Below, in pieces: positions 1-27,273 of a stretch of 64,000 nucleotides of DNA. The stretch lies in contig CM102287.1 of NCBI GenBank assembly GCA_046563655.1, forward strand, positions 124,001 to 188,000, in the 5' to 3' direction. Source of the DNA: Yuukianura sp. NJ FZ-2021 (taxonomy: Eukaryota). The position numbers and the translations under genes are program-made. The number at the start of each line of letters is the position of its first letter. The first letter of the stretch is position 1. The notes beneath the pieces were generated by a model that did not search any database, was not told the DNA's origin, and worked only from the letters and a program-made list of their open reading frames with translations.

Positions 1-161
1 CTGGACCCTGCTTGCGTACCTGAAGCAATTTCCTCCTCTCGATTCTTAGGCGACTTCGACTTGGACCGATTGTCCTTTAACACCGAATCCAATGCAGTGA
101 ATGAAAATTGTGGTGTTCCTCGATCCCTCTTTTTCCCCGATCCGGAATCACCAGTACTCAT
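1..161 (-). CDS. Start of an unknown ORF that runs off the window edge (MSTGDSGSGKKRDRGTPQF...)
   Basis: ATG at 161 with an open frame to position 1. No recognisable domain in the ~53 aa visible. Confidence 0.35.
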   Translation of the reverse strand, partial: MSTGDSGSGKKRDRGTPQFSFTALDSVLKDNRSKSKSPKNREEEIASGTQAGS

Positions 162-251: not shown

Positions 252-1629
252 TTATTCATCACAATGGATAGAATTAAAGATAATTGTCACTGCAATCAGT
301 GAGAAAATTATCATGACACCGAAAAATGCCCATGTAAGTGCTCCGATCTCTGCTACCTCAGCAGTCAGATCGCCTGAACTAGGTTCACAGTCAATTCCGA
401 GAAACTTAGCTAGCTTATAGTATCTGTGGAGTCGGAAATTCCAATCGTATTCCATGATAAGACTCCGTTCTAAAGAATAAAAGCCCAGGTGATGCTCATT
501 TATGCTTATAACAGGTGCATGCACCTCACTCAACTGTACAGGGTTATGAACTTTATCTTGAGGAAACAGTTTCCCCTGAGAGTGGTAGTAACCTAGCCAT
601 GTGCCATTCACTTGTAAGTACAATGTACGTCTCTGCGTTATGACTCCAGTAATTGGAGAGGAAATTCCTAGTTCCCTTGTCAGCTGGGTACCCTTTGTCT
701 AAGATGGTGTTGGTGAAGTATTTCCAGTATTTTCCGTTGGCGAAAATGTAGAGATGTCCATCGAATGGGAAGATCCTCTCGATTCGGATATTCTCAGGAA
801 AATATTGAAAATATTGATGATTGATTACGAATCTAGGATAGCTAAGTTTCCCAGTTCTCTCTACTTGATAATGTCCGAATCCTTGGAACAAGAAGTAGAC
901 GCTGCTTAGATGATAGACGTGCTCTATGAGTCTTGAACACACGGCTCGGTACAGCTGCTGTTGGACTTCCTTCTTTTCGGCATCGATTTGTAGGATCAAG
1001 TGAGCCTGCTCGTAGAGTCGCTCAAGAGCTTGTTTGTCTACTATGCTCAAGTTTAGTTGGGGGTCCCTTATCTTGTACCATGGGAACATGATGGAACTGT
1101 TCTCCGAAGTGTGGACAAGCCCCAGGGCATGACCTACTTCGTGTAACATTACGGTGTACAAGTTAATGCCAGAGGCATTGTGACCTGTAGCCCATTTTTC
1201 AGATGCATCTAAATGCACATCTCCTCCTATCCCTTCACTGGGGTAGAAGGCATGGCCTAGGATACCACCCTCAGCATCAAATGGTTTTGAATCGTTATGA
1301 TCGAACTTGGCAAACTTAATTTGGATCTCTGCAGTTGAGTCACCTGGCTTATTCATAAATGTGAAATTTGAAATCTCATTCCATCTCTGGAACGCTAGCT
1401 TAATATCAGTAAGGGCGTCGGCTTTTCGGATCTCCGAGGGTACGTCCTCTAAAGTCCATCCTAGTTGGAACGTTTTCCACATCCTCGGATTGAACACATG
1501 ACGCTTGGTCCTAAGACTATCAAGTGGGTCTTCCTCCCAGCATCGGATGGCTCCATCGTCCTCTCTCGTGAGCACGGATCCTTCAGCCATCAGCGTCAAT
1601 GTAATTAACAGCAAAACGTAGAGAGACAT
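252..1629 (-). CDS. Intronless membrane-type matrix metalloproteinase (matrixin, M10A) with hemopexin-like region and C-terminal TM helix; one frameshift near 625
   Basis: Signal peptide MSLYVLLLITLTLMAEG, degenerate cysteine switch IRCWEED, furin site RTKR, GGILGHAFYP, zinc motif HEVGHALGLVH, Met-turn SIMFPWY, hemopexin-like LYIFANGKYWKY...GYP. The overlapping ORF 252-623 continues to a TM segment (TWAFFGVMIIFSLIAVTIIF). Confidence 0.88.
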
Positions 1630-1967
1630 CCTTCTCTGCTGTTTTCCTCTCCCTGGAAGGTTGCGTACGGAGTTAATACTCCTCCTTCATTTCATGAAGG
1701 TAGAGCCTACTTAATGCTAGACCCTAACACCCTGGCAAGATCTCCTGCAGTAGGTTCAGTCCCCTCCCAGTCCAAAATCTCGAGGTAAATTACAATAATG
1801 CTCCCTTCCTTGAGCATGGGGTGTATTTGTCAACTTGTGTGACATCATCAGTGAGATAGATGGCCTATCGGACTGGCTAGGTCCGGGCATGATGCTCCAT
1901 GGACTGGGATCTAACCTTGAGTTGACGACAACTCTATGAAAATTCTAAAGCCATTCTTCAGAGGGGC

Positions 1968-4445
1968 TGTGGTACCCCGCCCCTTCGCATCGCTAGTGTT
2001 CTAAGGAACAGCTGCAGAGACTTGACCTTCTCCCTGTTCTTAACTATGCTAAGTCCATTGGTCTCAGGCGGAACCTTCGCCACCTCCGGACCTAGCGCGG
2101 TATCCTGTTGTCTAGATTCTAGCTTATGTCCTACCTAATAACAAGTTTCGGCTGGTCGCGACTCCAGCGTCCGCAAGCGTTCGGATTATCCTTCGACTAA
2201 GAGCAGTCATGGGGCATTCTCGCCAAATACCATGACCCCGGTCAAACATACACCAGTTGCTAAGGGTCTACCTCTTGACCCCGACTTGTCCCTAAAGGCG
2301 GGAAGCATCAAGTCCTTACGAGGACTCAGACCTAAAGCTATTGTCCTTAAACAGTACTACATAGTCACGAGGTCTATCCTCCCTCGTGACGAAGTCATTT
2401 CTAAATTTCTGCAATTTGAGCGAAGGCTCCTCCCTTCACTCTACTTAAGTGTCGACTAACTGTGGGAAGGGTTCCCCCCTTCCACTCTACTCATACTCTT
2501 TAATTATGAAGTGAAAGCTTTGAGAAGAAAAGAAACAGAAGAAAGCTAAACGAGTTCTTGTCATTACTTCGGATTCAGTCTTGACGTTACTTAAAAACAA
2601 GTATGAGATCAGTAGATTATTACAATGTAGGAGTATGGTTACTCCTATACAAAAAGCTGCTGAGGTCAAGAGAGGTCATAACGTCAAAAAGCCTTTTTCT
2701 GAATGCGAATTTACGTTAATCCTGTCTATGTTTGAAAAGATACTAAGCGAAAAGATAAATTTTAATTTTCAATTGAAACTTAATTCGAAATTCAAGAATT
2801 TGTCATTTGAAGAAAATTGAAATGTAAGTCCATGCATGAATTCTACTAGTTTGAATTTTGAGTGTTCGCGCCGAAATTCTGTTCAAAATTTTTATACAAT
2901 GAAACTTGTATAGTAGTTAATTAACTTATTATGACTTCTTCAGGGATTAATCAGACGTTATGCAATTGTACTTTGTTGAAATGAATTCAAATCAGCTGAG
3001 AATTTCATGAAATATGAGTTTGCTAAAATTTGCACTATTTTCGGCCTTTTGCAAAAACAGAATTATGAAATGGGAAAAACATTAGATGTAACACATGAAA
3101 CTTTAAAAATTTTGCTTAGAACTGACTACTGAACTGCAAGAAGATAAGACTTGATGTTCATCCATACATCATACTTTAAATTTTCAAAATTTAAATTTTC
3201 GCGCCAAAAGTAATTTTTCAAAAATTCTTCAGAAATGTGAAAGAGGACTTGCCATTTAGGCTGTGGGCTATAGGCCTACCCTTGCAAATAGTAAAAATTT
3301 TCAAATTCGAATTTTCCCGCCAAAAACAAGTTTCAAATTCTAAGAGCTGCTTTCTCCAGACGTTATGTTAAACGTTATTCTAGTTGACCTCGCTTGACCT
3401 TAAGTGAATCTAGGGACTATACAGAAGGATCTCAGTAGAACCTCCATTGAAACAGGGTGATTTTTGATGCTCTTATTTTGCTAATCTAATATTAATGTTC
3501 CCTTTTGATTGTTCTCTGAAAACAATCAAACGGCGGGTCTAACACCCGCCCCACCCCACTTGACCTGAAACTTGACCCTTCTGGGTCCCTGGGACTCATA
3601 TGACCTCAAAATGAACCAATGCCGCAGTTTTACTCTCTACCTTGCCTTCTACCTAGGTGGGGCCGGTCCCACCGGACCCACCTTAAATGACGTATGAAAA
3701 GTGTATGTCTAACTAACCCTTGAACCAAGATAAGAAGGGAAGATTCCCTTACCTCTGTCAGCTACAGTAGTATTCGGTGAAAGTGGCAGCGGCAGATGCG
3801 TGAGCTGTGAAGACGAAGCTGTGGAGATGCGTGGAGCCGTGAAACGTGGAATTGAAGACTGCCGAAAAGATCTTCCCAAGAACAGTGTTTATTTGTAAAA
3901 GACTTAGTGCTTAGACCTTAGACCTTAAGTTGGAGAGAGAGAGAGTACTTGGCCAGAAGCTAATCTAGAAATGACTTAACGCTAACAAGTTGTTACTTAT
4001 ATTTATAACCTTACTCTTGACCCAGCTTGTCCTTCAACTGAGGGACGCTTAGCGACCTGAGTTCAAAGTTGGACGTTAATGACCAGGATCTATGATCCTG
4101 TTCTGTCATTAAAGTCCAAGATTGAACTAAGTTGTGGGACTATGCAAGTTGATTATCTGGGCACTTTGTATGAATGTCAACTTTTGATGAGTTGACATTC
4201 ACATGTCTAACAAGTGTAAAACTTGTTAAACAAGCAACTTTGTTGCTTGCCCTCCCACTGATCCGTCATGTCAAAGATCAATTGTCATAAATCTTTGATA
4301 CTTGATCCTCTTGAGAAAGAGGAAAAGAGCTGAGTCTTTGCTTTCCTACTTGTTCTATTAAAACTAATGTTTATTTTACATTCGTCCGGTTTCGGCCCAC
4401 CGGGAGATTTCAAAATCTCCGGGTGGCTCGAAATCCGACGTTACA
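1968..4445. repeat. Putative long (~2.5 kb) LTR, rich in hairpins
   Basis: TG...CA ends and adjacent PPT-like tract. Minus-strand TATAAATA near 4000 and AATAAA near 3890. Many short inverted repeats. No second copy in the window to confirm the boundaries. Confidence 0.45.
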
Positions 4446-4510
4446 AAATGAATACTGAAACAATCGTCGAGAAATTGTAGGAATTTATATTTTATTTACC
4501 GAAAAAAAAA

Positions 4511-5097
4511 TTATTTGAACCAATCGCAATAAGAAAAGCATGCCTGGGATGACCCTGAGTGACCCCTATTCGTACAGATGCCTAAACTGTTATAAAAATC
4601 ATGTACAATTTTTTCGTTTTTGTTTAAATTTTTAGGACTAAATATACGTAAAGAACTACACAAATCTTTTCCGCTGCTCAACTCTTGAAAGACTTTTAAG
4701 CAGAACATGCCGCACGTTGCACTGTCATCCTTTTGTAGTTTTTTAGTGTTCCATTCTGAGATTGTAGTGCATGGGCCGTAAGCAAGAGATAGGTTGTAAT
4801 CGCTAGGCAATTTCCCAAAACTGTCAAAAAAACCAACCGGCCTTGCTCCAAGTGCGCCCAGAGAACCCAATGGATTCCTAAATTAAAACAAAAAATAAAT
4901 CTCTTGCGTTTCCATATTTTTTTTTACCTCAAGCATTTACCTGGAGAAGAAGTTAAGCCGGTATTTTGTATACAACAGAATGGAGGGCGTGGGTTTAGAA
5001 GGCTAATTCCATCATTAGAACTAACAAAAGTTCGAATTTTCGGGTCAGAGCACTCTTTTATACATGCCATCGCTTCCTCCAGTTCCGCCCCGTTCAT
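4511..5097 (-). CDS. Adenain-like (C5) cysteine maturation protease; 1 intron and a 1-nt frameshift in a T-run
   Basis: ATG at 5097 lies 2 nt after the MCP stop. GT-AG intron 4878-4940 joins NTGLTSSPG to IHWVLW (catalytic His), followed by FDSFG, LQ and TCGMFC. The T7 run at ~4826-4832 (minus strand) needs an eighth T to stay in frame. Confidence 0.85.
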
Positions 5098-5099
5098 CC

Positions 5100-6401
5100 T
5101 CAAGTTTTAAGAACTTGCGCGTTTCTGTTTTTGTCAATTGTTAATACGTTTTGAAAAGTTCCCAGCACAATCAACTCGACTGGCTCGTTCAGGGCTTCAC
5201 CAAAGACTGCAGTTACACGGACGGGTCCTTCGCGAGCAGGAAGGAGGTCATTGTTGGATACAGCAGCTTCAGAAAGTTGGAAAAGGTAGACGGCGTTGCC
5301 AAGTTTGAAATTCTCGCGGGAAATTCCGTTTCCAAAAGAACCGAGTGTATCAAATAGAGCCACGAATGGTTCCATGTACAGGTTTGCAGCGTAATTACAG
5401 ACAAGTTCTCTGTAAAATGGAACAAATTCTTCGGTTCTGACGCTGATTGAAGTTATGCCAAAGTCGGCAAAATTCTGTGGGCTATTCTTGTAGTTTCCTC
5501 GAAACGCTTTTGATTTAACCAAGGCAATTGCAACAATCGTAGGCATCCTGCGAAGAAAAAGTCGATCCGAGGTGAAGCTGACAGTTCCGGAAGCTATCGT
5601 GTTTCTTTCAATTTCAATTTCTCGGTAACTGTAGATTGCTTTTTTTCCATGGTTGAATAGTTGCTGATGGTTAGAGTAGATTCGAGGGCTAATTGTATGT
5701 GCCTTGAGATGAAAGACGGCATCTTCAATGGAATACGTATACTTTGTGTCGGTGGGCGTGTCCAAGCAGAAAGGGGCGGAGTTTTTAGTCAGTGTAAGTT
5801 CAATTTTTAGTCCCGAAGGAATCCATCGTTGGAGTTCACACAATGAACATGAAATTTTTCCAAACAAATCAAAGGTCTTTGACCCGGCACACATTGCTTT
5901 TCGTTTCGTATATCCAGTGTTTGTTGCGTCAAAGACATCCTGTTTGGAATCTGGGTAGTAGGCAATTGATGACAGGAGGCTCGCTTTGAGTTCTTGACTG
6001 TAGCCCAGGAGATGCGACAGAATTCCTCTGTAACTGTAACTTTGTGGGTACTCACTCATTTGGACGCCACCTACCGTGACCGTGCAGGAGTCAAAGATTG
6101 TGTAGAACATCATGTTGCTAATAGCAACGTCGGCAGTATCCGGAAGCGTTTCTCCACTTGCAGTGAGAACTTTACATTTTAGGTATAGGTATGAAGATGA
6201 GAAATCCAAGTAAACGTTTGGCGGAAATTGAAACTGCCCAATGTTGAATGTGATTTGAGGATTTTCTTTTACAGTATTCACAGGAATAATCTTGATGAAC
6301 TCTGTTTGCTGCACACTAATGTCAGTCGGGGGAACTGAAAATAGATCGAGTTGGGAGATGTAGTTGGGTTTTGTCCCCGGAAGCGTGTTTACTGAAGCCA
6401 T
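5100..6401 (-). CDS. Polinton major capsid protein (double jelly-roll, PY/hexon-like), 433 aa, intronless
   Basis: N-terminal SQLDLFSVPPT, YLD..SYLYLKCKV, YSYRG, F.G.Y.NSP.NF and C-terminal IDKNRN are typical of Polinton MCPs. Located between the penton and protease genes. Confidence 0.88.
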   Translation of the reverse strand: MASVNTLPGTKPNYISQLDLFSVPPTDISVQQTEFIKIIPVNTVKENPQITFNIGQFQFPPNVYLDFSSSYLYLKCKVLTASGETLPDTADVAISNMMFYTIFDSCTVTVGGVQMSEYPQSYSYRGILSHLLGYSQELKASLLSSIAYYPDSKQDVFDATNTGYTKRKAMCAGSKTFDLFGKISCSLCELQRWIPSGLKIELTLTKNSAPFCLDTPTDTKYTYSIEDAVFHLKAHTISPRIYSNHQQLFNHGKKAIYSYREIEIERNTIASGTVSFTSDRLFLRRMPTIVAIALVKSKAFRGNYKNSPQNFADFGITSISVRTEEFVPFYRELVCNYAANLYMEPFVALFDTLGSFGNGISRENFKLGNAVYLFQLSEAAVSNNDLLPAREGPVRVTAVFGEALNEPVELIVLGTFQNVLTIDKNRNAQVLKT

Positions 6402-6462
6402 CTTGAGACTGACTACCGACTAACGCTGGACTGAAGACTGAGGAATCTTGTAAATGGTTCTT

Positions 6463-6822
6463 CTATTTAAACGATTTTGGAGGTCTTGCTTGTTTCGTTG
6501 GTCCACAGCCGCTCTTTTTCTTTTTAGGAGTTTTCTTTTTAGAAGCAGAAGTTTCCACCGCGGAGACTTTCTTTTGTGGTGATTTTCCTTTTCTTTTAGC
6601 AGCTCCAGTCTTTTTACGGCCCTTGGATTTTTTTCTTCCTTCTCCTGTCATTTCTGAAGCACCGTTCTTTTTACCCTTTTTAGCTTTTTTCACACTCTGG
6701 AATGGAATTGAATTTGGTAAAACTACAGGAGTCAACGCCCCGTACCCAACCTGGCGAGTCTTTTCTCCGTCCATTCTTTTTAAAAGCTTACAACTTTCAC
6801 CTTCACACACAACTTCAAGCAT
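6463..6822 (-). CDS. Small Lys-rich putative DNA-binding core protein
   Basis: First ATG at 6822 with TATAAATA upstream. Very basic C-terminal half. GxG motifs QVGYG, MTGEG and KSGCG; MTGE/G fits the adenain cleavage consensus. Confidence 0.65.
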   Translation of the reverse strand: MLEVVCEGESCKLLKRMDGEKTRQVGYGALTPVVLPNSIPFQSVKKAKKGKKNGASEMTGEGRKKSKGRKKTGAAKRKGKSPQKKVSAVETSASKKKTPKKKKSGCGPTKQARPPKSFK

Positions 6823-6888
6823 GTGGCCTGTGGATCCGACGAAAGTCAAATGACGACTAACTAATGGAGCAGATTATTTATATTGGTT

Positions 6889-7989
6889 TCACAAAGTTTT
6901 ATTTTGAAAATGAAGTACGACGGCAGAATATAAATCGTTAGCTTGAGGAATTGGTTCCATATTTTCAAAAACGAGATCGATTCCAATTTCACTAATTTCC
7001 CTCCGGTCCATGTCAACAGGAAAGTATAGCAATGGCCGTGGAGTTTCGTGTACAATTCTAACAACTTCCTCTTTTTTCACATCTCGCCTTGGTAAAATGC
7101 TCATATGCCGAACTGCCTTGGATTTGAATTCCTGTGGTTTAACAGCATCGCAGAGCACAATCACATTGTTGTGATGTATATCCAGGTCAATGTTGGCGAT
7201 TGTCGGAGATGAAGTGTTGCTGTAGCTAAACCAAAATGGAGTTTTGAGGCCAAAAGTTTTTTCAAGAAATTCCGAGAGACGAACACGATAGCCACTTCCG
7301 GAGACGCCGTTGACGCTGAGTTTGCTTTCGTCGTAGGAAAATGAAATTTTCATCTGCTTCAAAGCAACGTTAATTTCACTAACTATGCCTTCGACTGTCT
7401 TGTCTTTGGGTTCATTGACCTTTACAGTAGAGCTGACTTCACGAAAAACAGTAAACTTTAGCGGCTCTGAAATGTCAATTGCGTCCAACGCTGCTTGGCT
7501 TGGAGACAACGGCGCACTAGTTTCACCCTGGCCAAACACATTTTTTGTAAATCCGAGAGCACGCGAATAGACTTCTGGAATTTTCACGTCGTAGCCAGCG
7601 TCATTGTTGCGAAATGTTAAAAAGTCATATCCTTCAACTACTTCCAATAGAAATGTCAGCTTGTTGTTGAATATTGCAAAATTCGTATTGCATTTGTTCA
7701 TTGTTTCAATATAACTTTCACTTTCGGCTCGAAATACTTCCATGCTTGATTCGAAGCGCTGAACCAAGGAAACGACATTGTCGTCGGGTTCATGGCCAAA
7801 AATCGTATACTTTCCAGTGTCTGGCGTTGCAGGGTACCACAAATTACAAACTGCAACTTCTAGCGGGAGATTCTTTTGCAAAGGAATATTGTCCAAAAGC
7901 TTATTTCGAAAAGAACTTGTATTATTAGATGGGAAGAATGAGGGAAATGAAGTAGAACCTAGAGTCACGAAGCGCGAAAACGGGTACAT
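6889..7989 (-). CDS. Polinton minor capsid (penton-like) protein, 366 aa, intronless
   Basis: N-terminal TL.S...FFPSNNTSSFRNKL...EVAV and C-terminal LYFPV...ISEIGIDL...VVLHF are typical of Polinton penton. The ATG is 1 nt after the integrase stop. Confidence 0.8.
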   Translation of the reverse strand: MYPFSRFVTLGSTSFPSFFPSNNTSSFRNKLLDNIPLQKNLPLEVAVCNLWYPATPDTGKYTIFGHEPDDNVVSLVQRFESSMEVFRAESESYIETMNKCNTNFAIFNNKLTFLLEVVEGYDFLTFRNNDAGYDVKIPEVYSRALGFTKNVFGQGETSAPLSPSQAALDAIDISEPLKFTVFREVSSTVKVNEPKDKTVEGIVSEINVALKQMKISFSYDESKLSVNGVSGSGYRVRLSEFLEKTFGLKTPFWFSYSNTSSPTIANIDLDIHHNNVIVLCDAVKPQEFKSKAVRHMSILPRRDVKKEEVVRIVHETPRPLLYFPVDMDRREISEIGIDLVFENMEPIPQANDLYSAVVLHFQNKTL

Positions 7990-7990
7990 T

Positions 7991-9155
7991 TTATGCGGTC
8001 ACTGGGGTCAGATCTTCGTTTAAGAAACTCCCTAAAAAAAGAATTGGATGTGGCTTTGTCAACTGGCAAAATCCGTCTAAAATGATTACCTTTAATCTCC
8101 TCCTTTTTTAGCGTCTCAAGATAGTAAAAGGGAGGCACGGCGCTGATTGCCTTTCTAATCCTATAAAAAAAGAAACGCTTGGCATACATTCGAAAACAGG
8201 GCGAATATGCTTCTTTACCTAAAGACTTCCGTAGAGTACGATTGTGACGTTGAAGCTTTTTCAAAAGTTAGCCGCTTTCTAGCGACCCTCACGAGCTGAC
8301 CCACCTGAAGAAAAAGACTATGTTTTAATGAGACAAAGTGAATGTTTAGCATCAACTCAATACCTTGAATTTTGGCTTCTCGGGTTTGGAATTTATCAGT
8401 TTGTCGTACACGTTTATAAAAACCGTGGTTTTGTTTTTTGGGTCAATAGCCTCTGTGGGGGTCATCTTCAGAGTTGAATGCACCGTTTTATTGTAATTTG
8501 AGACAATGTCCGGCCATAGAGTTTTCATAGAAGACTTTGGATTTGCAAATTGAGCCCGGGTCAAGTTTCTTCTTAACGTTTGAATTACACGTTCTACTTG
8601 TGAAACTTTTCTCGCAGTTCTCGGGGAATAGCTGTGAATGTCATTGGCTTCCAAATATTTCAAAAGGCTTTTATTCTTGAATTCTTTGCCAAAATCAGAA
8701 GCCAAGAAATGCGGGAGATGCTGAGAAAAAAAATGATAAACTTTAAATGGACATGAGAGAGAAAAGAAGACATTTACCCCAGCTTTTTTGAAAACTTTCT
8801 TTATGGCTTCTAGAACGACCCGTGCTGTCTTGTTGACACAGAACTCTGTCCACACAAAGCGGCTAAACAAGTCCATGCAGATGAGAATGAAGCCAATCTT
8901 TTCTTTTTTGGCAGACTTTTTGTCCAACTGTAAAAGATCCACTCCAAATGTCATATAAGGAAAAAACGTTAATACTGGCCTGGTCCTTGGCTTTCTTTGC
9001 GGCCTGTGTAAAGAATATGCAGGAACTCCGGACAAAGCTTGCTTGACCTTTTCTTTGTCTAAAAAGCCTGACGACTTTAAGAATGATGGAAAACCTGAAA
9101 AGCTTCCAACTGCTTTTTTATTTAAATAGGCTGACTTTATTTGTCTTTCAGACAT
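7991..9155 (-). CDS. Polinton retroviral-like (DDE) integrase, 5 exons
   Basis: Catalytic motifs GVDL, ASDFGKEF, VERVIQT. GT-AG introns 8721-8777, 8305-8363, 8161-8218 and 8032-8089 restore the typical C-terminus KFKVGQLVRV...FEK...YSTEVFRI...YYL...EEIKGSF. Confidence 0.9.
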
Positions 9156-9286
9156 GCTAAGAACCTACGGAAGAAATTACACAAAACAGTGTATGACGGA
9201 GACTGCCGGATGAGTATGACTTTTTACCAAATTTATTTAAAAAATGACCGAATTTTCGAGAATTATTTAAGCTTAAGACTCAGGGG

Positions 9287-9750
9287 TCAGTTGGTATCCA
9301 TAGCGTCTTCTTCGTTCCAGTCCATTGACTTTACCAAGAAGCACGGATTTTCAAAACACTGTGATCCGGTTCGTCCACAGCCCAAGATACACGGTTCGGA
9401 AAGTACCAAGTGACACTTCATGTCCTTCATGAACTCTTCCAAGTCTCCTTCCCGAACATAGGCCGAGTGATCCGCTGCCAGTTCATTCATTGTCTTGTCC
9501 TTGTTAATTTCTGCATGGTAGACGTAACAGTCACGGTGATCCCAGCGGTTCCAGCAGCCATATTTCAACACAGCGCTGCCAAGTTGGCGTATGACAGGAT
9601 CCACTACGGCAAGCTCGTCCAAAAGTTGAGCCAATGGCTTTTCCTGTCTGTTTGGGCAATCTAGATACAAAAAGAAATTAGTTTCAAAGGTCAAAAACTG
9701 ACAATTTCTAAAATTTTACCCGCCAACGGTGGAGAATCTTTTATCGGCAT
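9287..9750 (-). CDS. Polinton accessory Cys/His-containing protein, 2 exons
   Basis: ATG at 9750, 59-nt GT-AG intron 9661-9719, TATA-like motif near 9805, AATAAA downstream. No family recognised. Confidence 0.6.
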
Positions 9751-10049
9751 TTTGAAAATGATGGCGTTTACTACGGAATGATGGCTTTTACAAACTCCTG
9801 TCGCTTTATATACCCTATCGAACTGAGTAGAAACGTTTTGAAAAGATGTTGACTAGAAATTTCCGAAATTTTCGGTCCATTGAAAATTCCGCTCTGTTGA
9901 ACTCAAAAGGCCCTACGGCATACTAAATGCGATTACTCATGCACACAAAAAAAAAGCCAAGGAAATATATTCTTGTGCACTTTCCTCCTTTGTATTCAGT
10001 CGCACTTTCCTCATCCCCTCCTCAAGTCACACAAAATCTTCAGAAAGCA

Positions 10050-10928
10050 ATGGAAAACACAGAGCCAGCTAACAACCAGTTTCCTAGCCATGAAGAATTG
10101 CCAGAAGAAAGAGATTGGACAGAAGTATACAAAGTGAAAATCAGTCATCCGGACACTTTGGATTGCACTTTAATAACGACAGGCCCTAAGATTTTAAAAG
10201 TACTACGCATTGAACAGCACGGCACGGCAACCACTGTTGATTTCGAAGTGATACCAAAACTCATCGGAAAGCTTTTTCAACTTTATCTTCAGAACGGTGG
10301 GCGAGCGAGCGAGCTGCCGTATGTAACACTTTATCATGAGAGAGGTTCAACATGCCTTATAATTCGACACAAAGACTCCAAGGAGGTTAGGAGCTGGCCG
10401 CAGGATTCTGAAAACGGTCGTAAAACTGATCCAGACCCAATCCGCTGCCCACAAGGAATGTATCCCGCGCCAATTATCGTGTATCAGACGTCTCAAATGG
10501 ACGGGTTTTGGCCTAGGCACGCAGAATCTCGTGATAGCAGTACCGATTGGGCACAATTAGACAAATTGCGCATCAGTCAGCCGGACGCTTGGGATTGTTC
10601 TCTAATTACGGAAGATCTTAAGGTCTCGAAGGTCATCCGCATCGAACAGCACGGCGCGGCAGCCACCGTGGATTTCCAAATGATTCCGAGCCTAATCGGC
10701 AAATTGTTTCAACTCTTTCTTGGAAGCGGCGGGAGAGTGACAGAACTGCCGAGAGTAAAACTTTATCACCAGAAAGGCACTACATACCTTGTGATTCGGG
10801 ACAATGACTCTGTGGACAATTGGAACTGGCCAACTGATTGGGAAACGGGTCCTAGGATTACGCCTCTAGGAAAATTAATCGAGTATCAGACATATCGAAT
10901 CGAAGGAGACGAGGTATTCGTGGCATGA
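10050..10928 (+). CDS. Polinton accessory protein made of two tandem homologous domains
   Basis: The block ISHPDTLDCTLIT...RIEQHG...VDF..IP.LIGKLFQL...GGR..ELP.V.LYH occurs twice. Likely start is MENTEP at 10050. Confidence 0.7.
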   Translation: MENTEPANNQFPSHEELPEERDWTEVYKVKISHPDTLDCTLITTGPKILKVLRIEQHGTATTVDFEVIPKLIGKLFQLYLQNGGRASELPYVTLYHERGSTCLIIRHKDSKEVRSWPQDSENGRKTDPDPIRCPQGMYPAPIIVYQTSQMDGFWPRHAESRDSSTDWAQLDKLRISQPDAWDCSLITEDLKVSKVIRIEQHGAAATVDFQMIPSLIGKLFQLFLGSGGRVTELPRVKLYHQKGTTYLVIRDNDSVDNWNWPTDWETGPRITPLGKLIEYQTYRIEGDEVFVA

Positions 10929-19287: not shown

Positions 19288-19693
19288 TGAAGTGCCCTGG
19301 TTTTCCCCCTTTAGGTTAGGGTCAATTGCCCCTTGAGGTTAGGGAGTGGCCTTAGGTTAGGGTAGTTAGGTTAGGGTTTAGTCTTAGCCTGTAGTGAGAT
19401 TTGGTTTAGCGTTTAGCGGGAGTTTTGAGTAGAGTTAGCGTGGTAGAGGAGAGTCAGGAGAGTATTGAGACTAGTTGTGCTAGTCAGTCGGTTTTTGGTG
19501 TTTGGTTCAGCATGAGCTGAGACTTTGTATCATTTTGTACAAATAAATATCTTTTATATTTATTTGTCTCCGTGTCTTTGTGTTGTTTCTTGGTGTCCCT
19601 TTTGGTCCTCAGTTTTGTTGCATGAGTCCGGCAGTGCTCGGATCGTAGTCTGGAGGCCATCTTTGGCAGTTTTGCGTAGCACGAGGTGCTACA
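19288..19693 (+). repeat. Gypsy 5' LTR
   Basis: Near-identical to 26880-27273 apart from a few small indels and substitutions. Contains TTAGG-like motifs and AATAAA. Confidence 0.95.
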
Positions 19694-19695
19694 CA

Positions 19696-19705
19696 TGGCG
19701 ACCGT
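19696..19705 (+). promoter_or_regulatory. Primer-binding site (probably tRNA-Arg type)
   Basis: TGGCGACCGT lies 2 nt after the LTR and resembles the 412/mdg1-type PBS. Confidence 0.7.
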
Positions 19706-19936
19706 TTTGTGAGTGTTACTGCTGAGGTCAAAGGTCACAATGGTGTAACAACACATGGTGAGTGTTTAAAAACTTTTATTCTGTGTCAAGTGGGATCAAG
19801 ACATCATGTAATTGTTCGTGTGTGGACGTTACCCTTGGTCAAAGGGAAGTGGCCATAAATTCAGAAGTGGATCATCGGTAAATTTTGTACATAGAAGGAG
19901 GAAGTTGCCGAAACAACTTCCACTGGATCCACTCCA

Positions 19937-21468
19937 TGTCAGACAGAAAACCTGTAAGTAAAGAATTTAAAAATCTTGAAATTGATCCTACAGTGACATT
20001 TAAGCTACCAGAGCTTAGTCCAACATCAGATTCGGAAGGACCGTTTCTCCGAAGTCAAGAAAGTAAGATTCCGACTCCAAGTACATCCCCAAAAATCATC
20101 GTTAGTGCCCCAGGTTCATCAGTAACCATGGCAACATACACCAAGGATGAAGTGGATAAGTTAGTGGCCGAGGCCGTGGCCCATGCCGTGCGCGGCGTGG
20201 AGCAGAGATTAGTTCAGCGGGTGACCGGTGGAGTCGCTGCGGTGACTCCAGCCCCTGCGGAGGCAGATCCAGTTGGTCAGACCCAAGCATTGATTACAGC
20301 ATTGAAGAGTATCAAGTTCACATCATTATCATCTAAATTGCCTGTGCCGAGTTTTGATCCAAAGAAGATGTCAGCGGCAGGCTACCTTAATGAAGTAGAG
20401 CGGTACTTCACAGCTCAAGGACACGAGCAAAGGCAGTTTCTTTATCTTGTGAAGACGGTCTTGCCTGTAGAATCTCAACCATGGCTCGACCACATCCTAG
20501 TGACAGTGACGGACTGGGATTCATTCAAAGATGCTTTTATCAACAGATATGATAATTGGATGGACGTGGCAGAACGAACGAGGCTTCTGCACACAAGAAG
20601 ACAACAGTTCAACGAGTCTGTTGAATTTTATTTGTATGATGTGGTTCGGTGCTCCAGATTAATTTATCCACATGAGTCAGTGGCTGATGCAGTGTTACGT
20701 GCTAAATTAGGTTTGAATCCGAGGATTCGCACAGCCCTTGGAACTCAACAATTCGACACAGTGGAATCACTTTTTGATGCATGTCGAATTGCACATGCAA
20801 ATTTGACAGCAGAAGACAGAATCACAAAAAACAAATTCGGATTACCTCCAATTGTCAAGGTCGACTCAAAGTCAGAGTCAGTCAAGAAAGATGATAATTC
20901 CTCTAGTTCAAATGCTGGAAGTTCTGCTGGAACTTCCAATGGAAATAATTGGTTTCGTGGGAAGGAAGCCAAAAATAATAGCTTCCGTGGACACTGGAAA
21001 GGCAAGGGAAATGGCTACAAGAATTATTCCAGTGATCAATCCCCGACTAATGGAAGTAATGGAAGTCCGAACAGTGGACATTCTTCATCTCAACCCAATG
21101 ACCAGTCACAAGGTCAAAGTTCAAAATCCAATTATGACAAGAATTCAGTGCAGCCTCAAAATGAATCATCTGCACGTGGGAAGGGCGGTTACCGTGGTAA
21201 TCGTGGTTCTTCAAATGACAATGACCGTGGTGGTGGTCAAGGCAGAGGTCAAGGTCAGACCTCTAGGCAAGATTTGAGTGATGTTCAGTGCTTCAAGTGT
21301 AATGGTTTTGGGCATCGTAAGTTTCAGTGTCCATCAGGTGTTGGTTTGGCCTTGGGGTCATTTCAAGAGGAGGTCCCTCAAGGACCTCCAGTTCCAAAGA
21401 AGAAGAAGGAGCCACCTGAAAAAAATGAAGCGTCGACTTCTAATGAGAAGTTAAACGCGCAGTGGTGA
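19937..21468 (+). CDS. gag: Gypsy Gag
   Basis: Retrotransposon gag-like core (WDSFKDAFINRY...RRQQFNESV) and CCHC knuckle CFKCNGFGHRKFQC. First ATG at 19937. Confidence 0.9.
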
Positions 21469-21495
21469 ATGAGAAGTCGTCCATCATTCACCCTA
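21450..21495 (+). promoter_or_regulatory. -1 ribosomal frameshift signal between gag and pol
   Basis: Heptamer G_TTA_AAC in the short gag/pol overlap, followed by the stem GGTGAATGA/TCATTCACC. pol is in the -1 frame. Confidence 0.75.
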
Positions 21496-24400
21496 CCCTA
21501 GTGCAAGTTTCGGACGATTTAATTCCTTTTGTGACTGTGGCGAATGAAGATTCGAAATTTTTGGCTATTTTCGACACGGGATGTTCGCAGTCACTCATTG
21601 ATGTAAAGTTATGTGAAAAGTTAAAGTCAGTTGTAGTTCCATTAAAAAATAAATCTACAACGATGATGAATAGTCAGAAGCTGAGTCTGATTGGCTTCTG
21701 TTTTGTGTATATAAAAATTGGTGGTCGAACTTTGAAGTCAAAGTTCTATGTGGCGGAAGGTTTGCCAGTTAAGTGTGTGTTGGGTTCTGATTTTTGTTTT
21801 CAGCATGACATTGTAATTAGATCGAGAAGTAAGGAGTTTTGGTTTGGTGACAATGGAAGTCAGAAATTCAAATTGACTTCCACTACAGAAACAACCGGGA
21901 CTGCGTTGTTTTCAGTGGCTTTACCAGAAAGTCACAAGCAAGATAGTGAAGTGCAAGTGAGAGTTCAGCGTGTCCTAGAGAAATTTCCAACGGTCGTCCG
22001 GAGTGATGGGAAGTTGGGAAGGACGGACCTGACTCATCATGTGATAGAAGATGAAGGATATCCGCCGGCAAGGAATCCTTACAGAAGGTCACCAGAAATG
22101 CAAAAGATCATCAATGATCAAATCCAACAAATGTTGAAGGAAGGTCTAATCAGACCTTCAAGGTCACCGTATGCAGCTCCAGTTGTGGTGGTACCAAAGA
22201 AAGACGGCAGTAAGAGACTCTGTGTGGACTATACGTTGCTCAACCAGCAAACGAAGACGAATGCTGCGCCAATGGAAAGTGCTCATTCCATTTTACACAC
22301 AATTCCTGCTGGTTATTGGTACACAGTGATTGATCTTGCGAAAGGATATTGGCAAGTCAAGTTGCATCCGGACAGTGTTGAGAAGTCAGCATTCGTGACT
22401 CAAGATGGTCATTACGAGTTCCTAGTGATGCCATTCGGATTAAAAAACAGTCCAAAGACGTGTCAGCAGTTGATGCGGAAAGTCATCCAAGGATTCTCCA
22501 AGTTTGCAAAGTGCTACATGGACGATATCATTTTGTTCAGTAAGACTCTGGATGAACATTTAGTGCATTTAGAAAAAGTGCTGAGTAGGTTGAAGATGGC
22601 AGGACTCACCATCAGTCCTCAAAAGTTACAGTGTTGTAGGAGAGAGGTTGATGTGTTGGGCCATCGTTTGACAGAACATGGTCTACAAAAGTGTCCTAAA
22701 AAAGTGAGTGCCATAGTGGATTTCCCTACTCCAAAGAACGTCAAAGAAGTGCAAAGTTTCCATGGAATGACTCAGTGGTATGCTCCGTTTATTGAACATT
22801 TTGCTGCAAAGGCAGAGCCACTGTACCGACTTCTAAGAAAAAACCAAATGTGGGTTTGGGGAGAAGAACAGGAGAAGTCGTTCCATTTACTAAAAGAGTC
22901 AATGTGCAACGATGTGATGTTACATGCAGTTGACTACGACCATCCGATTTTGTTAAAGTGCGATGCGTCGAATTATGGGTTAGGTGCGGCCTTAACTCAA
23001 GTGATTAATGGTGTGGAGAGACCAGTGATGTTTATCAGTAAAACACTCCGAAAATCAGAAATTCGGTACCACATTTACGAAAAAGAGTTGTTCGCGATTA
23101 TTTGGGCCTACCGGAAGCTCAGAGAATACATTGAAGGTCAGAAGTTCACAATTATTACTGACAACAAAGCCTTATCATTCCTCAACAAGATGAAGGAGCG
23201 GAAAGCAAAATTGGCTTTGTGGGATACGGAGATCAAGTCATGGGGTGTCGAGATCAAGCATCGCTCCGGGAAGGATAATGTGGAGGCGGACGCGCTTTCA
23301 CGTGCTCCAGTTCCTGTCGATGAAGCGGACCTCGATTTTGAAGATGATTCCCCGGCGTACATGTACTCGCCAATGGCCATGGCGTTACTGTCGTTTGATA
23401 CTCCTACGATCCAGAAGATGAAAGACGAACAACGAAAGGATCTTGATTTAGTGAAAGTGATCAGTGACATCGAAAGTGGTAAAAGTGTTAAAAGTTACGT
23501 CCTAAAAAATGGCGTACTAGGCAGAGAAGTCATGGGATTTGACTTCTATTCCGATAATGGTTTCTGCGGAGACATTATCGAGGGGCGATGTGCGGAAACG
23601 AGGCCTCAATCTTCCGACATCACTCTAGAGGACGGTGCCCAGAAAGAGTGCAGCAGTTCCTCAGCTCGTAAAAGTGAGCTCATTCAGGTGCCAGTGGTAC
23701 CAAGGGTCATGATACCCGAAATAATGAAGTTACTTCATGATGTGCCAGAAGCAGCGCATCTTGGCATCAAAGCCACAAAAGTAAAAATCAAGAGAAGATT
23801 TTTCTGGAAACACATGAATAAGGACATCAGTGATTATGTGAAATCGTGTCCAGTTTGCCAAGCAGTCAAGTCTTGCAACTACAAGCCCTTTGGTTTACTT
23901 CAAGCAGTGGTGCCGCCAACTAAAGTGTTTGAGAAAATCTACATCGATTTTCTAGGGCCCCTGCCGAGATCTTCAAATCAAAACGAGTATTTGTTCGTCG
24001 TAGAGGACGATTTATCCAAGTGGGTGGAGTTATTCCCGATGCGGAAAGCAAAATCGAAAAAAGTTGTGGAAGTGTTAGTGAATGAAATTTTTTGTCGTTA
24101 TGGTACTCCGAAAACAGTTGTGTCGGACAATGGAAGCCAATTTCTTTCCAAAGTGATGATTAAAATGGCTAAGGACTGGAAGATCAACCATGTTCCTGTA
24201 AGTCCGTACCATGCGCAAGCTAACACAGTCGAAAGGGTCAATCGGAACCTTAAGCCTATGCTCCAGGCTTATGTCGACAAGAATCATAGATCATGGGACC
24301 AGCATCTCCAGAAGTTCGCGTTGGCTCTTAGAACTTCTGTACATTCGACTACTAAAGTGACTCCTGCGTTACTAAATTTAGGTCGTGAGATTCCGCTGCC

Positions 24401-24908
24401 CCTTGATAGGAACTTACAAAGTGATGGTGACAGGGAAGTCCGGAAGTTAGGACTTCTGCCTGCTCAATTGGAAGAAATTATTCAGTTCGTGAGGAAGAAC
24501 ATGGAAGAAGCACATGAGCATAATATCAAGCATTATGACTCTAAACATCAAGAAGGAAACTTTCAAGTTGGTGATTTAGTGCTTATTAAAAATCATTCGT
24601 TGTCAGACAAGAAAAAAGGAATTGCCAAAAAATTAGATCCTCGTTACATTGGTCCATACCAAATTAGTGAAGTGTTAACCCCAGTGACCTTCAAACTTGT
24701 GACATTGCCTGAGAAAACTAATTTTGGAAAGCGTCATGTGTCGGAGTTGAAGCCTTATACTGTTCGCACGTCGCAGTTTGCGGTTCCGAAAATTCCCACT
24801 AAGTCAGAGGATTGGTCGGACTCGGAGGAGGAAGCGAACTCTGGAGGAAGAACTTTGAGGAAAAAAGTTCGGCTCAACTATCGCACGCTCGCTGGATACA
24901 GAAACTAA
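21462..24908 (+). CDS. pol: Gypsy Pol (PR-RT-RH-IN), intact
   Basis: Protease FDTG, RT YMDD, RNase H CDAS...EKEL...TDN, integrase HHCC and DDE (IDF, SDNG, ERVN), GPY module. Confidence 0.95.
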   Translation: MVNEKSSIIHPTLVQVSDDLIPFVTVANEDSKFLAIFDTGCSQSLIDVKLCEKLKSVVVPLKNKSTTMMNSQKLSLIGFCFVYIKIGGRTLKSKFYVAEGLPVKCVLGSDFCFQHDIVIRSRSKEFWFGDNGSQKFKLTSTTETTGTALFSVALPESHKQDSEVQVRVQRVLEKFPTVVRSDGKLGRTDLTHHVIEDEGYPPARNPYRRSPEMQKIINDQIQQMLKEGLIRPSRSPYAAPVVVVPKKDGSKRLCVDYTLLNQQTKTNAAPMESAHSILHTIPAGYWYTVIDLAKGYWQVKLHPDSVEKSAFVTQDGHYEFLVMPFGLKNSPKTCQQLMRKVIQGFSKFAKCYMDDIILFSKTLDEHLVHLEKVLSRLKMAGLTISPQKLQCCRREVDVLGHRLTEHGLQKCPKKVSAIVDFPTPKNVKEVQSFHGMTQWYAPFIEHFAAKAEPLYRLLRKNQMWVWGEEQEKSFHLLKESMCNDVMLHAVDYDHPILLKCDASNYGLGAALTQVINGVERPVMFISKTLRKSEIRYHIYEKELFAIIWAYRKLREYIEGQKFTIITDNKALSFLNKMKERKAKLALWDTEIKSWGVEIKHRSGKDNVEADALSRAPVPVDEADLDFEDDSPAYMYSPMAMALLSFDTPTIQKMKDEQRKDLDLVKVISDIESGKSVKSYVLKNGVLGREVMGFDFYSDNGFCGDIIEGRCAETRPQSSDITLEDGAQKECSSSSARKSELIQVPVVPRVMIPEIMKLLHDVPEAAHLGIKATKVKIKRRFFWKHMNKDISDYVKSCPVCQAVKSCNYKPFGLLQAVVPPTKVFEKIYIDFLGPLPRSSNQNEYLFVVEDDLSKWVELFPMRKAKSKKVVEVLVNEIFCRYGTPKTVVSDNGSQFLSKVMIKMAKDWKINHVPVSPYHAQANTVERVNRNLKPMLQAYVDKNHRSWDQHLQKFALALRTSVHSTTKVTPALLNLGREIPLPLDRNLQSDGDREVRKLGLLPAQLEEIIQFVRKNMEEAHEHNIKHYDSKHQEGNFQVGDLVLIKNHSLSDKKKGIAKKLDPRYIGPYQISEVLTPVTFKLVTLPEKTNFGKRHVSELKPYTVRTSQFAVPKIPTKSEDWSDSEEEANSGGRTLRKKVRLNYRTLAGYRN

Positions 24909-24968
24909 AACGTGCTCTGTTCAGTTAGTCTTATTTAGTTATTTGGAAGTCATTTCCTGACTTCCATC

Positions 24969-26868
24969 ATGCCATCATCAATTGTTAGTGATGTGGTTCC
25001 AGTCAGTGGAAAGAAAAAGAAAACTCAAGATTACTGGAAGAAGAGGCGGGAGTGTGAACTGAAGTATGGTACGGCTGATAAGAGTCCACAGGAACGTAAG
25101 GACATGTTTTTATTTGAATCTGCTCAACGAAATGCATGGGATGAATTCCCATACAAATATCATCCTCATGTGTCGTTAGTGAAAGTTTTTCGGTTGTGGG
25201 ACGCAGTGATGGAGCCTTCAAAACAACCGATTATGGATGAGAGACTGCAAGTGCCAATTCGCCTTATCGACACGGAAGCAAAGTTCATGATTTCGACCCA
25301 AGAATCGGATTACATCATTGATCCGTTCGTAGTGCCAATCCAGATGCAAATGCTGAGGGAAATCTTCTCCAATGGCAACTACATCAAGATTCTGCATGGA
25401 AGTGTTAATGACTTACTCATGTTCCAGCTCCATTATCATATCTTCTTTCGTGGGTGAAATTGACACTCAAATTGCGGATTCTGTCTTTGGAGGGACTCAA
25501 GGACGTGGATTGGACAAAGTGATAAGTGAGTATTTGCCTGGTGTGAAAGTGAGCAAGGATTGTCAACTTGCTGACTTCAGGATCCGTCCAATTGAAAACA
25601 TGCATCCAGACATGATCCAGTATGCCAGGAGTGACACACATTTGTTATTACGTGTGTTTGAAGTCATGAAGCAACGTTATGACTTCAAAAGTGAAAGTGT
25701 TAAGTGGAAGGAGGTTGTCAAATTGTGTAATAATTTGTGCTTAAAAGTCTATACGTTTAAGCCTCATCTAAGTGCCCGTGAGATTCTGGCTAAAGTGGAC
25801 ATGCCCTCTTTAAGTGTAAGTGTGATGGAGGAAGTTGTCGGCTGGAGAGACATGGTTGCCAGGGAGATGGACGTTCAACCAAAGGAAGTCATTGCTGATG
25901 TTACTTGTGCTCAATTGGTCAAGCAAGGGCCTAAAAATAAGTTGGACATTGAAAAAGTGATTGGCAAAAATGTTTTGTCATCGGGTCATTTGGATATGCT
26001 ACTTGAAGTTTTTGTGTCTACTAAAATGGTGGGCGGAGTCACAGAAGTTGGTGCTACAACTTCTACGGTGCAAAAAGTGACTTTGGACTTATCGGTGTTT
26101 GATTGGGATACACCAATCACTAAAGAAGATGTAAAAAGAATGGAACAGGAAGTTATTCAATCAACTTCCAAAAGTGTAAATTTTCCTGCTCCAGTGCCAA
26201 AAGTGACATTGGATTTGTCTGTTTTTGACTGGGATACGCCAGTCACCAGAGAAGATATTGCCAGGATGGAGGCGGAAGTTGCACAATCAACTTCCCAAAA
26301 TGTAAATAGTAGTGCTCCAGTGCCTGTCGACATTGACGGTTTATCGGATGTTTCCGATCTGTCAGACGTTTCTGACGAACCATTGGAGGTGGAGGTTGCC
26401 GATTCGGGAGCGGAAGTTGAGTGCAATGTCCAAGAATTCTGTGACAGCGATGACGGTGAGATGCTGATTGTCACCGTCTCTGAGGATGATCTACGTGAAG
26501 TGGTAGGATTACCGCAAGAAGGCGATCCGAATGTGGTTTATGAACCACAAGTACCAGTGGAAGATCCCCAGGAAGTGATGGATGCGATGGAGGAGGAGCC
26601 CCAGGAAGTAGTAGCTGCTGCCGAACGAAGAGATCGGCGAGATCGGCGAAATTGTCCCCACTGTGGAAGCGAGCGGCATACCGATGTCATGTTTTGCCGA
26701 TTTCGTGATCTGCCGGAAGCGGAGGCCAGAAGACGTCATCGACGCCGGCGTCTCAACATGAATCGACGCCGCAATCTTCGTATTCGTGCTGCGGAGGAAC
26801 GTGCAGCCAGAGAAGCGGAGGAAGATGGAGATCGTGTCCCGAGGATTGCCCCGGAACCCGATCTTTAG
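24969..26868 (+). CDS. RRP6: ORF3: Rrp6/EXOSC10-like DEDDy exonuclease plus HRDC, repeats, acidic region and Cys/Arg-rich tail; one frameshift near 25450
   Basis: ISTQESDYIIDP, IFSNGNYIKILHGSVND, DTQIA, QLADFRIRP, MIQYARSDTHLLL and HRDC-like WRDMVAREMD match Rrp6 motifs in order. The ORF ends at the PPT. Confidence 0.85.
26073..26325 (+). repeat. In-frame 126-bp tandem duplication in ORF3
   Basis: KVTLDLSVFDWDTP.T.ED..RME.EV.QSTS..VN..APVP occurs twice. Confidence 0.85.
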
Positions 26869-26879
26869 AAGGAGGAAGG

Positions 26880-27273
26880 TGAAGTGCCCTGGTTTTCCCC
26901 CTTTAGGTTAGGGTCAATTGCCCCTTGAGGTTAGGGAGTGGCCTTAGGTTAGGGTAGTTAGGTTAGGGTTTAGTCTTAGCCTGTAGTGAGATTGGTTTAG
27001 CGTTTTAGCGCGAGTTTTGAGTAGAGTTAGCGTGGTAGAGAGGAGAGAGACTAGTTGTGCTAGTCAGTCGGTTTTTGGTGTTTGGTTCAGCATGAGCTGA
27101 GACTTTGTATCATTTTGTACAAATAAATATCTTTTATATTTATTTGTCTCCGTGTCTTTGTGTTGTTTCTTGGTGTCCCTTTTGGTCCTCAGTTTTGTTG
27201 CATGAGTCCGGCAGTGCTCGGATCGTAGTCTGGAGGCCATCTTTGGCAGTTTTGCGTAGCACGAGGTGCTACA
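26880..27273 (+). repeat. Gypsy 3' LTR
   Basis: Copy of 19288-19693, preceded by the PPT and followed by TSD GGCT. Confidence 0.95.

Follow-up and report, generated by a model that had tools for sequence, protein, structure and literature searches.

We report a gene for a matrix metalloproteinase (MMP) that almost certainly belongs to the fixed gene set of a clade of errantivirus-like Ty3/gypsy retroelements carrying an F-type env, in which it lies between the primer-binding site and gag. Purifying selection has maintained the gene throughout the split of this clade into four or more families, and it is a real, selected cargo gene that appears not to have been described before.

The copy in the window (the whole 64,000-nucleotide stretch of DNA analysed here, G000:C5:124001-188000) is a 17,354-bp Ty3/gypsy provirus with an F-type env, which lies on the minus strand and is inserted in a Polinton-like element. 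Its order is 5′ LTR, leader (1.8 kb), MMP, gag, pol, env, a 267-aa ORF, a dUTPase-like ORF, an exonuclease-like ORF and 3′ LTR. The 5′ LTR (3448..4445, minus strand; 998 bp, TGT...TTCA) is 96% identical (K2P 0.039) to a second LTR beyond the window at G000:C5:112086-111092, which also has the ends TGT...TTCA on the minus strand. The four bases of the target-site duplication (TSD; 4446..4449, AAAT on the plus and ATTT on the minus strand) recur identically past the 3′ LTR, and at the empty site on C8 (G000:C8:~6093879) ATTT occurs once in a 96% identical Polinton-like element that is uninterrupted and lacks the 17-kb insert. One nucleotide after the LTR starts an 18-nt primer-binding site for the host tRNA-Gln(CTG) (3429..3446, minus strand), whose 15-nt core has nine exact matches in the genome: eight in element copies and one in a tRNA-Gln gene (ARAGORN). 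Based on the second LTR, the primer site, the purine tract located before the 3′ LTR outside the window, the ATTT flanks and the empty site on C8, we identified the window LTR as the 5′ LTR of the 17,354-bp provirus. Since the provirus runs on the minus strand in the order LTR–MMP–gag–pol–env, the MMP is its first sense gene.

An earlier, sequence-only reading of this DNA had already proposed the MMP as cargo of an LTR retroelement, and this proposal was borne out by gag, pol and env upstream in window coordinates, the second LTR, the AAAT duplication that it had predicted (4446-4449) and the many copies. Its layout had to be redrawn. An LTR-like block had been placed ~340 bp from the MMP, with AGAGGGGC as a possible polypurine tract, in which case the MMP and the ORF at 1-161 would be antisense to the element; the true LTR lies ~1.8 kb from the MMP start, the purine tract sits before the 3′ LTR, and both ORFs are sense, the ORF at 1-161 being gag. 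The block at 1968-3447 is leader and not LTR, because it occurs only once in the element region. That layout, an antisense MMP beside a plus-strand 3′ LTR (1968-4445) or an MMP owned by the Polinton, retains practically no probability: TTACA followed by AAAT does resemble the end of an LTR, and TGT at 1968 comes directly after a run of purines, but the minus-strand arrangement is fixed by the second LTR with its TSD, by the primer site and the gene order, and by the empty site. A plus-strand LTR at 1968-4445 with AGAGGGGC as its purine tract was thus rejected on the unrepeated block and the minus-strand LTR pair with its TSD, and a Polinton origin of the MMP on the C8 Polinton-like copy, which is continuous across the site without the MMP insert.

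The long 5′ leader (1630..3428, minus strand) contains 31 upstream ATGs and includes both AGAGGGGC (1960-1967) and the formerly LTR-like block. Over its 3′ ~760 bp, conservation relative to subfamily A2 is 76%. A conserved coding frame was looked for in the leader and none was found, and the window copy has no sense ORF longer than 55 aa there. Antisense to the leader, a 75-codon ORF (window 2232-2459, plus strand) is kept in subfamilies A1 and A3, not in A2, and is probably incidental. In the 5′ LTR we identified a candidate TATA box (3999..4007, minus strand) and, downstream of it, a candidate splice donor AG/GTAAG (3748..3755, minus strand), each present in all three family-A LTRs examined.

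Behind the MMP, the 5′ end of gag occupies 1..161 of the window (minus strand); the rest of this 505-aa gene lies beyond the window and is followed by pol, a 1337-codon frame with the order PR-RT-RH-IN. Domain matches comprise Retrotrans_gag/Ty3_capsid as well as RVT_1 (421-581), RNase H (644-773) and integrase (879-1050). The paired TG..CA LTRs, the TSD, the primer site and the purine tract, together with an integrase that follows RT and RNase H, place the element in Ty3/gypsy (Metaviridae). In families B and D, a slippery heptamer is present where gag and pol overlap; in A it is not clear. The env product of the window copy (718 aa) has no Pfam match and is 43-48% identical to those of the sister families, in which Baculo_F was matched by 4/4 envs (families B, C and D), three of them over the cut-off. 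Its structural model is of low confidence (pLDDT 53) and has chuvirus-related, baculovirus and paramyxo/pneumovirus fusion proteins as its best matches (Z 8.6, rmsd 14.0 and 332 aligned residues against F proteins). An RxKR-type basic cleavage motif occurs in 7/8 aligned env sequences. As in errantiviruses, the gene after pol is thus an F-type env, and its product has a signal peptide, a TM segment and a basic cleavage site.

Further cargo of the clade comprises ORFs that resemble dUTPase, exonuclease, F-box and macrodomain proteins. In the window provirus, the dUTPase-like ORF has 303 aa, the exonuclease-like ORF has 475 aa and only weak matches (E 0.026 in Pfam, 0.09 against Rrp6), and the 267-aa ORF gave an F-box-like Atlas lead of 0.86, below the 0.9 mark. 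All six ORFs after the MMP are without stops. The window provirus is an older insertion in which the MMP alone is frame-broken.

The Polinton/Maverick-like element that hosts the provirus (4450..9848, minus strand) has an integrase-like ORF at 8352-9155, and on C8 it has the uninterrupted counterpart of 96% identity. ORFs resembling family-B polymerases are located past the 3′ LTR, and the rve and DNA_pol_B_2 matches are weak and below cut-off. The ORF at 5100-6401, without a Pfam match, is presumably the Polinton capsid gene. Inside the Polinton-like region, a 333-aa ORF at 9927-10928 (plus strand) contains a duplication of ~432 bp and is not matched by Pfam. Elsewhere in the window, a separate Ty3/gypsy element (19288-27273; repeats 19288-19693 and 26880-27273) carries a split 3′-5′ exonuclease/HRDC ORF after pol (24969-26868), which recalls the DEDDy cargo of rotifer elements. 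At 39288-60776, a ~190-bp satellite forms arrays that run in either orientation and are interrupted by LTR-element fragments and by a 916-bp inverted repeat (38424-39339/42677-43592).

The MMP gene of the window copy is an intronless, membrane-type gene on the minus strand (252..1629; ATG at 1629, stop at 252) with one frame break near 680; open paralogues have 459 aa. The minus-strand ORF from 1629 to 553 encodes 358 aa with a Peptidase_M10 match at residues 51-206 (E 1.8e-44), and a second minus-strand frame adds a hemopexin-like stretch and a hydrophobic segment before ending at stop 252. Several features that had been read from the letters were found again in this single exon: the zinc motif (HEVGHALGLVH), the Met-turn (SIMFP), IRCWEED, RTKR and the C-terminal hydrophobic segment. 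On the minus strand, signal peptide and ~25-residue propeptide occupy 1501..1629 (Cys30 at 1540-1542, furin site RTKR at 1501-1512) and the M10 catalytic domain 1012..1479 (HExxHxxGxxH at 1111-1143, Met-turn at 1087-1089, structural-zinc ligands H111/D113/H126/H139). The hinge, a four-blade hemopexin domain and the hydrophobic anchor (~276-332) follow at 276..1000 on the same strand, out of frame here beyond ~680; they were assigned from an AlphaFold2 model and Foldseek search of an open paralogue, plus hydropathy. The alignment with an open paralogue shows 46 mismatches and a single gap site near 680, which moves the apparent frameshift from the ~625 given earlier. Because of this apparent break, which could also be an assembly error, the window copy if expressed would yield 317 native residues plus an off-frame tail and would lose the last hemopexin blades and the anchor. 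Since the window copy is broken, the biology of the retroelement MMP lies in the open paralogues.

A genome search with PF00413 gave 38 matches among 43 candidates. Half of them (19/38) span most of the domain in one frame and are intronless: 17 lie directly before gag, another is a truncated duplicate within a satellite, and the last belongs to a copy with an internal deletion. Twelve of these 19 are fully open and seven, including the window copy, are broken. The remaining 19 matches are four fragments of three further element copies and 15 exons of seven intron-containing host genes, in which the catalytic exons are split and, in four cases, a CG-x-D switch motif is present. Element MMPs have neither the introns nor the single-copy state nor the full prodomain of a host MMP gene, and no synteny with the host MMP genes was found. 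With 19 intronless copies, 17 of them before gag, and introns in the host MMP genes, a host gene or a single retrocopy was rejected.

The element MMPs form four families, A to D, which are 29-37% identical, while the position of the gene is fixed across families with RTs that are 64-78% identical. Each of the 12 near-full-length env matches of at least 47% identity has an MMP match upstream of it; no MMP match is near three partial env matches of 47-51% (C7:5259k, C4:9700k). In a quick RT tree restricted to elements of this genome (14 rows), the MMP clade stands apart from MMP-less env elements (SH-aLRT 99). No MMP precedes gag in three gag-pol-env elements that are more distant (env 21-27%, RT 37% identical), and two further distant loci are too degraded to tell. 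Because these three related env elements lack an MMP and the errantivirus survey discussed below mentions none, the gene is not needed for env-based spread in general. Four-bp TSDs were found in all seven copies for which both LTRs were recovered. LTR identities of 96% in two of them and 99.8-100% in five indicate recent movement of the MMP clade, with the window copy among the older ones.

Some individual copies deserve mention. A 19.9-kb family-B copy (G000:C8:6225950-6245887; L070-L072) with 99.9% identical LTRs is inserted in a ~542-bp satellite and carries ten long ORFs; three of these, located between pol and env, are F-box-like by eye. Another copy (G000:C13:266074-276048; L022-L023), in a ~508-bp satellite and with 99.8% identical LTRs, is 10 kb long and internally deleted, without pol and env; it keeps an open MMP together with F-box-like and dUTPase-like ORFs. 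Family C has a second ORF ahead of the MMP (L076:5560-6165 = G000:C10:530560-531165; G000:C9:895174-895866) with a macrodomain match (E 1.4e-13 to PDB 5e3b), possibly an ADP-ribose-removing cargo. Four MMP-element copies are located in or beside Polinton-like elements (window 4450-9848; G000:C8:6090-6101k; C5:1110-1125k; C5:945-953k), and several others in satellites.

Selection on the MMP was estimated from nine within-family pairs, all of which gave dN/dS values of 0.074-0.141 (Nei-Gojobori); these pairs share history and are not independent, and three have a dS of 1.3-2.0. Three between-family pairs were saturated. For comparison, gag gave 0.10 and 0.20 and env 0.03 and 0.09, whereas pol was saturated. 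The constraint spans signal peptide and propeptide, catalytic domain and hemopexin region. In 10/10 aligned open copies there is no change in the catalytic His and Glu residues, the Met-turn, the four structural-zinc ligands, the Cys of the propeptide or the final Arg of the basic site; the Gly of HExxHxxGxxH is replaced by Ala in family D.

All open copies retain the two zinc sites, the furin site, the hemopexin domain and the hydrophobic tail, together with a single invariant Cys in the propeptide. HExxHxxGxxH, Met-turn, structural-zinc ligands, hinge and hemopexin domain identify the protein as an M10A peptidase, with the hemopexin domain truncated in the window copy; the furin site and C-terminal anchor of membrane-type MMPs are present in open copies, the anchor being out of frame in the window. 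A basic site and a C-terminal hydrophobic segment (mean hydropathy 1.6-2.8) occur in 11/11 open copies, the anchor being of TM or GPI type. Only 0-7 residues follow this segment in families A, B and C, compared with 88-90 in D; the short tail could be a GPI signal, as in the Drosophila MMPs described in PMC5353688. In the AlphaFold2 model of an open copy, the hemopexin propeller (residues 221-420) has a pLDDT of mostly 74-91 and the catalytic domain is poor (mean 62). Foldseek ranked full-length MMP-13, MMP-1 and MMP-12 first, with TM scores of 0.60-0.70 to MMP hemopexin domains.

The propeptide sets these proteins apart. A full prodomain with PRCGxPD is not present: the propeptide of ~25 aa keeps the Cys alone in 11/11 open copies, and PF01471 has no match. 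In the element proteins this Cys is residue 28-44, and the basic site ends 10-14 residues further on. Among database MMPs, 109 that contain PRCGxxD have the Cys at a median residue of 95 and, in the 76 of them with a basic site, at a median of 17 residues before it. Since the Cys is early in the protein yet near the basic site, the three-helix prodomain is gone with the Cys spacing kept. A prediction of propeptide, catalytic domain and zinc scored 0.39 against 0.02 for the best control (contacts agreeing to at least 79%, partner pLDDT at least 56), a weak pass in a range (up to 0.60) that held only 5/78 solved cases and all four passing mismatches, low passes being more often wrong than right. 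Solved pro-MMP structures known to the predictor may also account for this pass. At most, the invariant Cys and this weak pass hint at the weakly latent MMP that had been proposed from the sequence.

We compared this arrangement with known systems. Like errantiviruses (env-carrying Ty3/gypsy elements of metazoans, Metaviridae; PMC13524379), the clade has LTRs, a tRNA primer site, gag, PR-RT-RH-IN, an F-type env after pol and a recent multi-copy spread; unlike them, it has an MMP ahead of gag, a length of 13-20 kb and several extra ORFs. In the main text and seven supplementary files of the errantivirus survey of Chary and Hayashi (PMC13524379), the terms metalloprot-, mmp and peptidase are absent; its pipeline covered gag-pol-env regions of up to 10 kb. 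LTR retrotransposons of bdelloid rotifers (Rodriguez et al., PMC5408684) share an F-like env and dUTPase and DEDDy exonuclease cargo, but their extras are ORF3 types or pol domains, and the available part of that account names no protease and no pre-gag ORF. Cellular MT-MMPs and the GPI-anchored Drosophila Mmp1 and Mmp2 resemble the element MMP in having signal peptide, furin site, catalytic domain, hinge, hemopexin domain and anchor; the element MMP differs in having no introns, no three-helix prodomain and a lone Cys in place of PRCGxPD.

Database searches gave no close relative and no further genome with this arrangement. The best protein match to the element MMP is 36% identical over 39% of the length, and none of the 67 matches in the search for relatives is close; other genomes may nevertheless have the layout. 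Among the best 150 matches of a profile search against 50% representatives there were only general MMPs, including P0143 and P0171. These two assembly-derived MMPs have a signal peptide, a very short Cys propeptide and a C-terminal hydrophobic tail, and do not group with the element MMPs. Viral contigs contained 13 MMP loci, none of them retroelement-like among the ten whose ORFs were examined, and a metagenome scan gave two, both bacterial-looking matrixins. Three metagenome proteins with 38-52% identity are relatives of the env. A literature search, mostly of non-subscription sources and without Repbase, found no retroelement-borne MMP.

How could such a gene be expressed and used? With 31 leader ATGs and a 1.4-kb ORF before gag, we infer that plain scanning cannot serve both MMP and gag, which would probably be translated from differently spliced or internally initiated RNAs. 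Families C and D have pyrimidine-rich AG sites just before gag. Based on these sites and the TATA box and AG/GTAAG of family A, splicing is a reasonable guess, with internal initiation as the alternative.

For the MMP of the open copies, we propose with about even confidence that it acts as a furin-activated surface protease that opens the basal lamina for spread from soma to germline, in convergence with the MMPs of granuloviruses. The protein would enter the secretory route, be held latent by its miniature Cys propeptide until furin cleavage, and remain fixed by a TM or GPI-type anchor on the producing somatic cell, perhaps also on budding particles. The anchored enzyme could then cut basal lamina or pericellular matrix so that enveloped particles reach germ cells. 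Infectious insect ERVs are described as being made in somatic gonadal cells and infecting the germline (PMC12992720), and the pores of the basal lamina are given as ~15 nm, far below virion size (PMC11865517). Among DNA viruses, all betabaculoviruses are stated to carry an MMP (PMC4500397, PMC4741009), the MMP of CpGV raised the virulence of AcMNPV (PMC4741009), and a gonad-infecting nudivirus has an MMP with a hemopexin domain (PMC3280521). Against matrix opening, two vertebrate MMPs expressed from a baculovirus are reported to have given no gain in virulence (PMC3153225). The young deleted copy on C13 also misfits a role tied to the element's own Env in cis, because it has an open MMP without pol and env. 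Crossing of basement membranes by a retroelement MMP, as suggested in the sequence-only reading, is plausible.

The clade captures genes readily, and the MMP may therefore serve another purpose. A possible, less than even reading is that the MMP is a cell-surface sheddase which does not act on the basal lamina and instead clips receptors, glypicans, adhesion or immune proteins or trims Env; clipping of such proteins could block superinfection, aid particle release or remodel the niche. The conservation of the MMP applies equally here, pericellular substrates suit membrane anchoring, and family D has its tail of 88-90 residues behind the anchor. In the Drosophila ovary, Mmp2 is described as cleaving Dally-like, a glypican (PMC4178971), and the substrates of the two MMPs of Drosophila are described as different (PMC5353688). 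However, Env needs no MMP for maturation, because a basic cleavage motif is already there (7/8), and the hemopexin domain, which serves substrate recognition including that of matrix, is kept whole.

The origin of the gene bears on a further reading, which is compatible with a matrix-opening protease. In a careful tree of catalytic domains (44 rows), families A, B and D group (99/98), and C joins them in one group in 66% of bootstrap trees. None of the families falls within a host gene. A host MMP clusters with Mmp2-like proteins of arthropods (95/89), suggesting that the host is an arthropod. The hemopexin regions of A, B and C match each other with 75-129 bits, compared with at most 47 bits to 226 database proteins, 10 viral ORFs and host pieces; the link of family D is weaker (17-38 bits, best 37 vs 14). 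The simplest reading of these comparisons is a single capture of the MMP as an intronless copy, and the missing introns would fit capture via mRNA or from a DNA virus. That the gene came from a large insect DNA virus (granulovirus-like), maybe together with the F-type env, and works as a homologue of the viral enzyme is unlikely in our view. A quick tree (111 rows) did place retroelement and granulovirus-like MMPs in a weak group (SH-aLRT 86), several granulovirus-like MMPs have no long prodomain, and the env of the elements is F-type. But this grouping is unsupported in the careful tree (28/59), and long-branch attraction is likely. For every family, the five best hemopexin matches outside the elements include no viral ORF. 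Nor did the viral ORFs examined have an invariant propeptide Cys and C-terminal anchor in the same arrangement, except for one short anchored ORF (L142).

MMPs of insect DNA viruses (betabaculovirus mp-nase, HzNV-2 Hz2V068, ascovirus) share the M10 and hemopexin domains with the element MMP and are its best viral structural matches, and they have been linked to spread or tissue remodelling (PMC4741009, PMC3280521). Their identity in structural alignments is 17-22%, a common origin is unsupported in the careful tree, and the element MMP differs in belonging to an element with an RNA intermediate, in its membrane anchor and in its minimal Cys propeptide.

That the MMP is retained for host benefit or as a passenger, and not for spread of the element, we consider very improbable: seven of the 19 copies are broken and copies are located in satellites and other mobile elements, but dN/dS is low between young, recently transposed copies in all families tested, the position of the MMP is fixed across families with RTs of 64-78% identity, and no single domesticated locus is evident in a host that has seven intron-containing MMP genes.

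Taken together, retroelements are able, like large DNA viruses, to take up extracellular enzymes of host type and retain them. The route of enveloped retroelements from soma to germ cells across matrix is poorly known, and the conserved, catalytically complete MMP of several young families offers a concrete, testable answer. The minimal propeptide of the elements is also a natural test of the smallest possible latency switch of an MMP. More tentatively, the clade could be a retrovirus-like lineage with a dedicated tissue-invasion gene, a captured, miniaturised and furin-triggered membrane MMP encoded by the first ORF, with which enveloped particles bound for the germline would breach the basal lamina in parallel to the granulovirus MMP and which would be controlled by a switch of ~25 residues without the three-helix prodomain.
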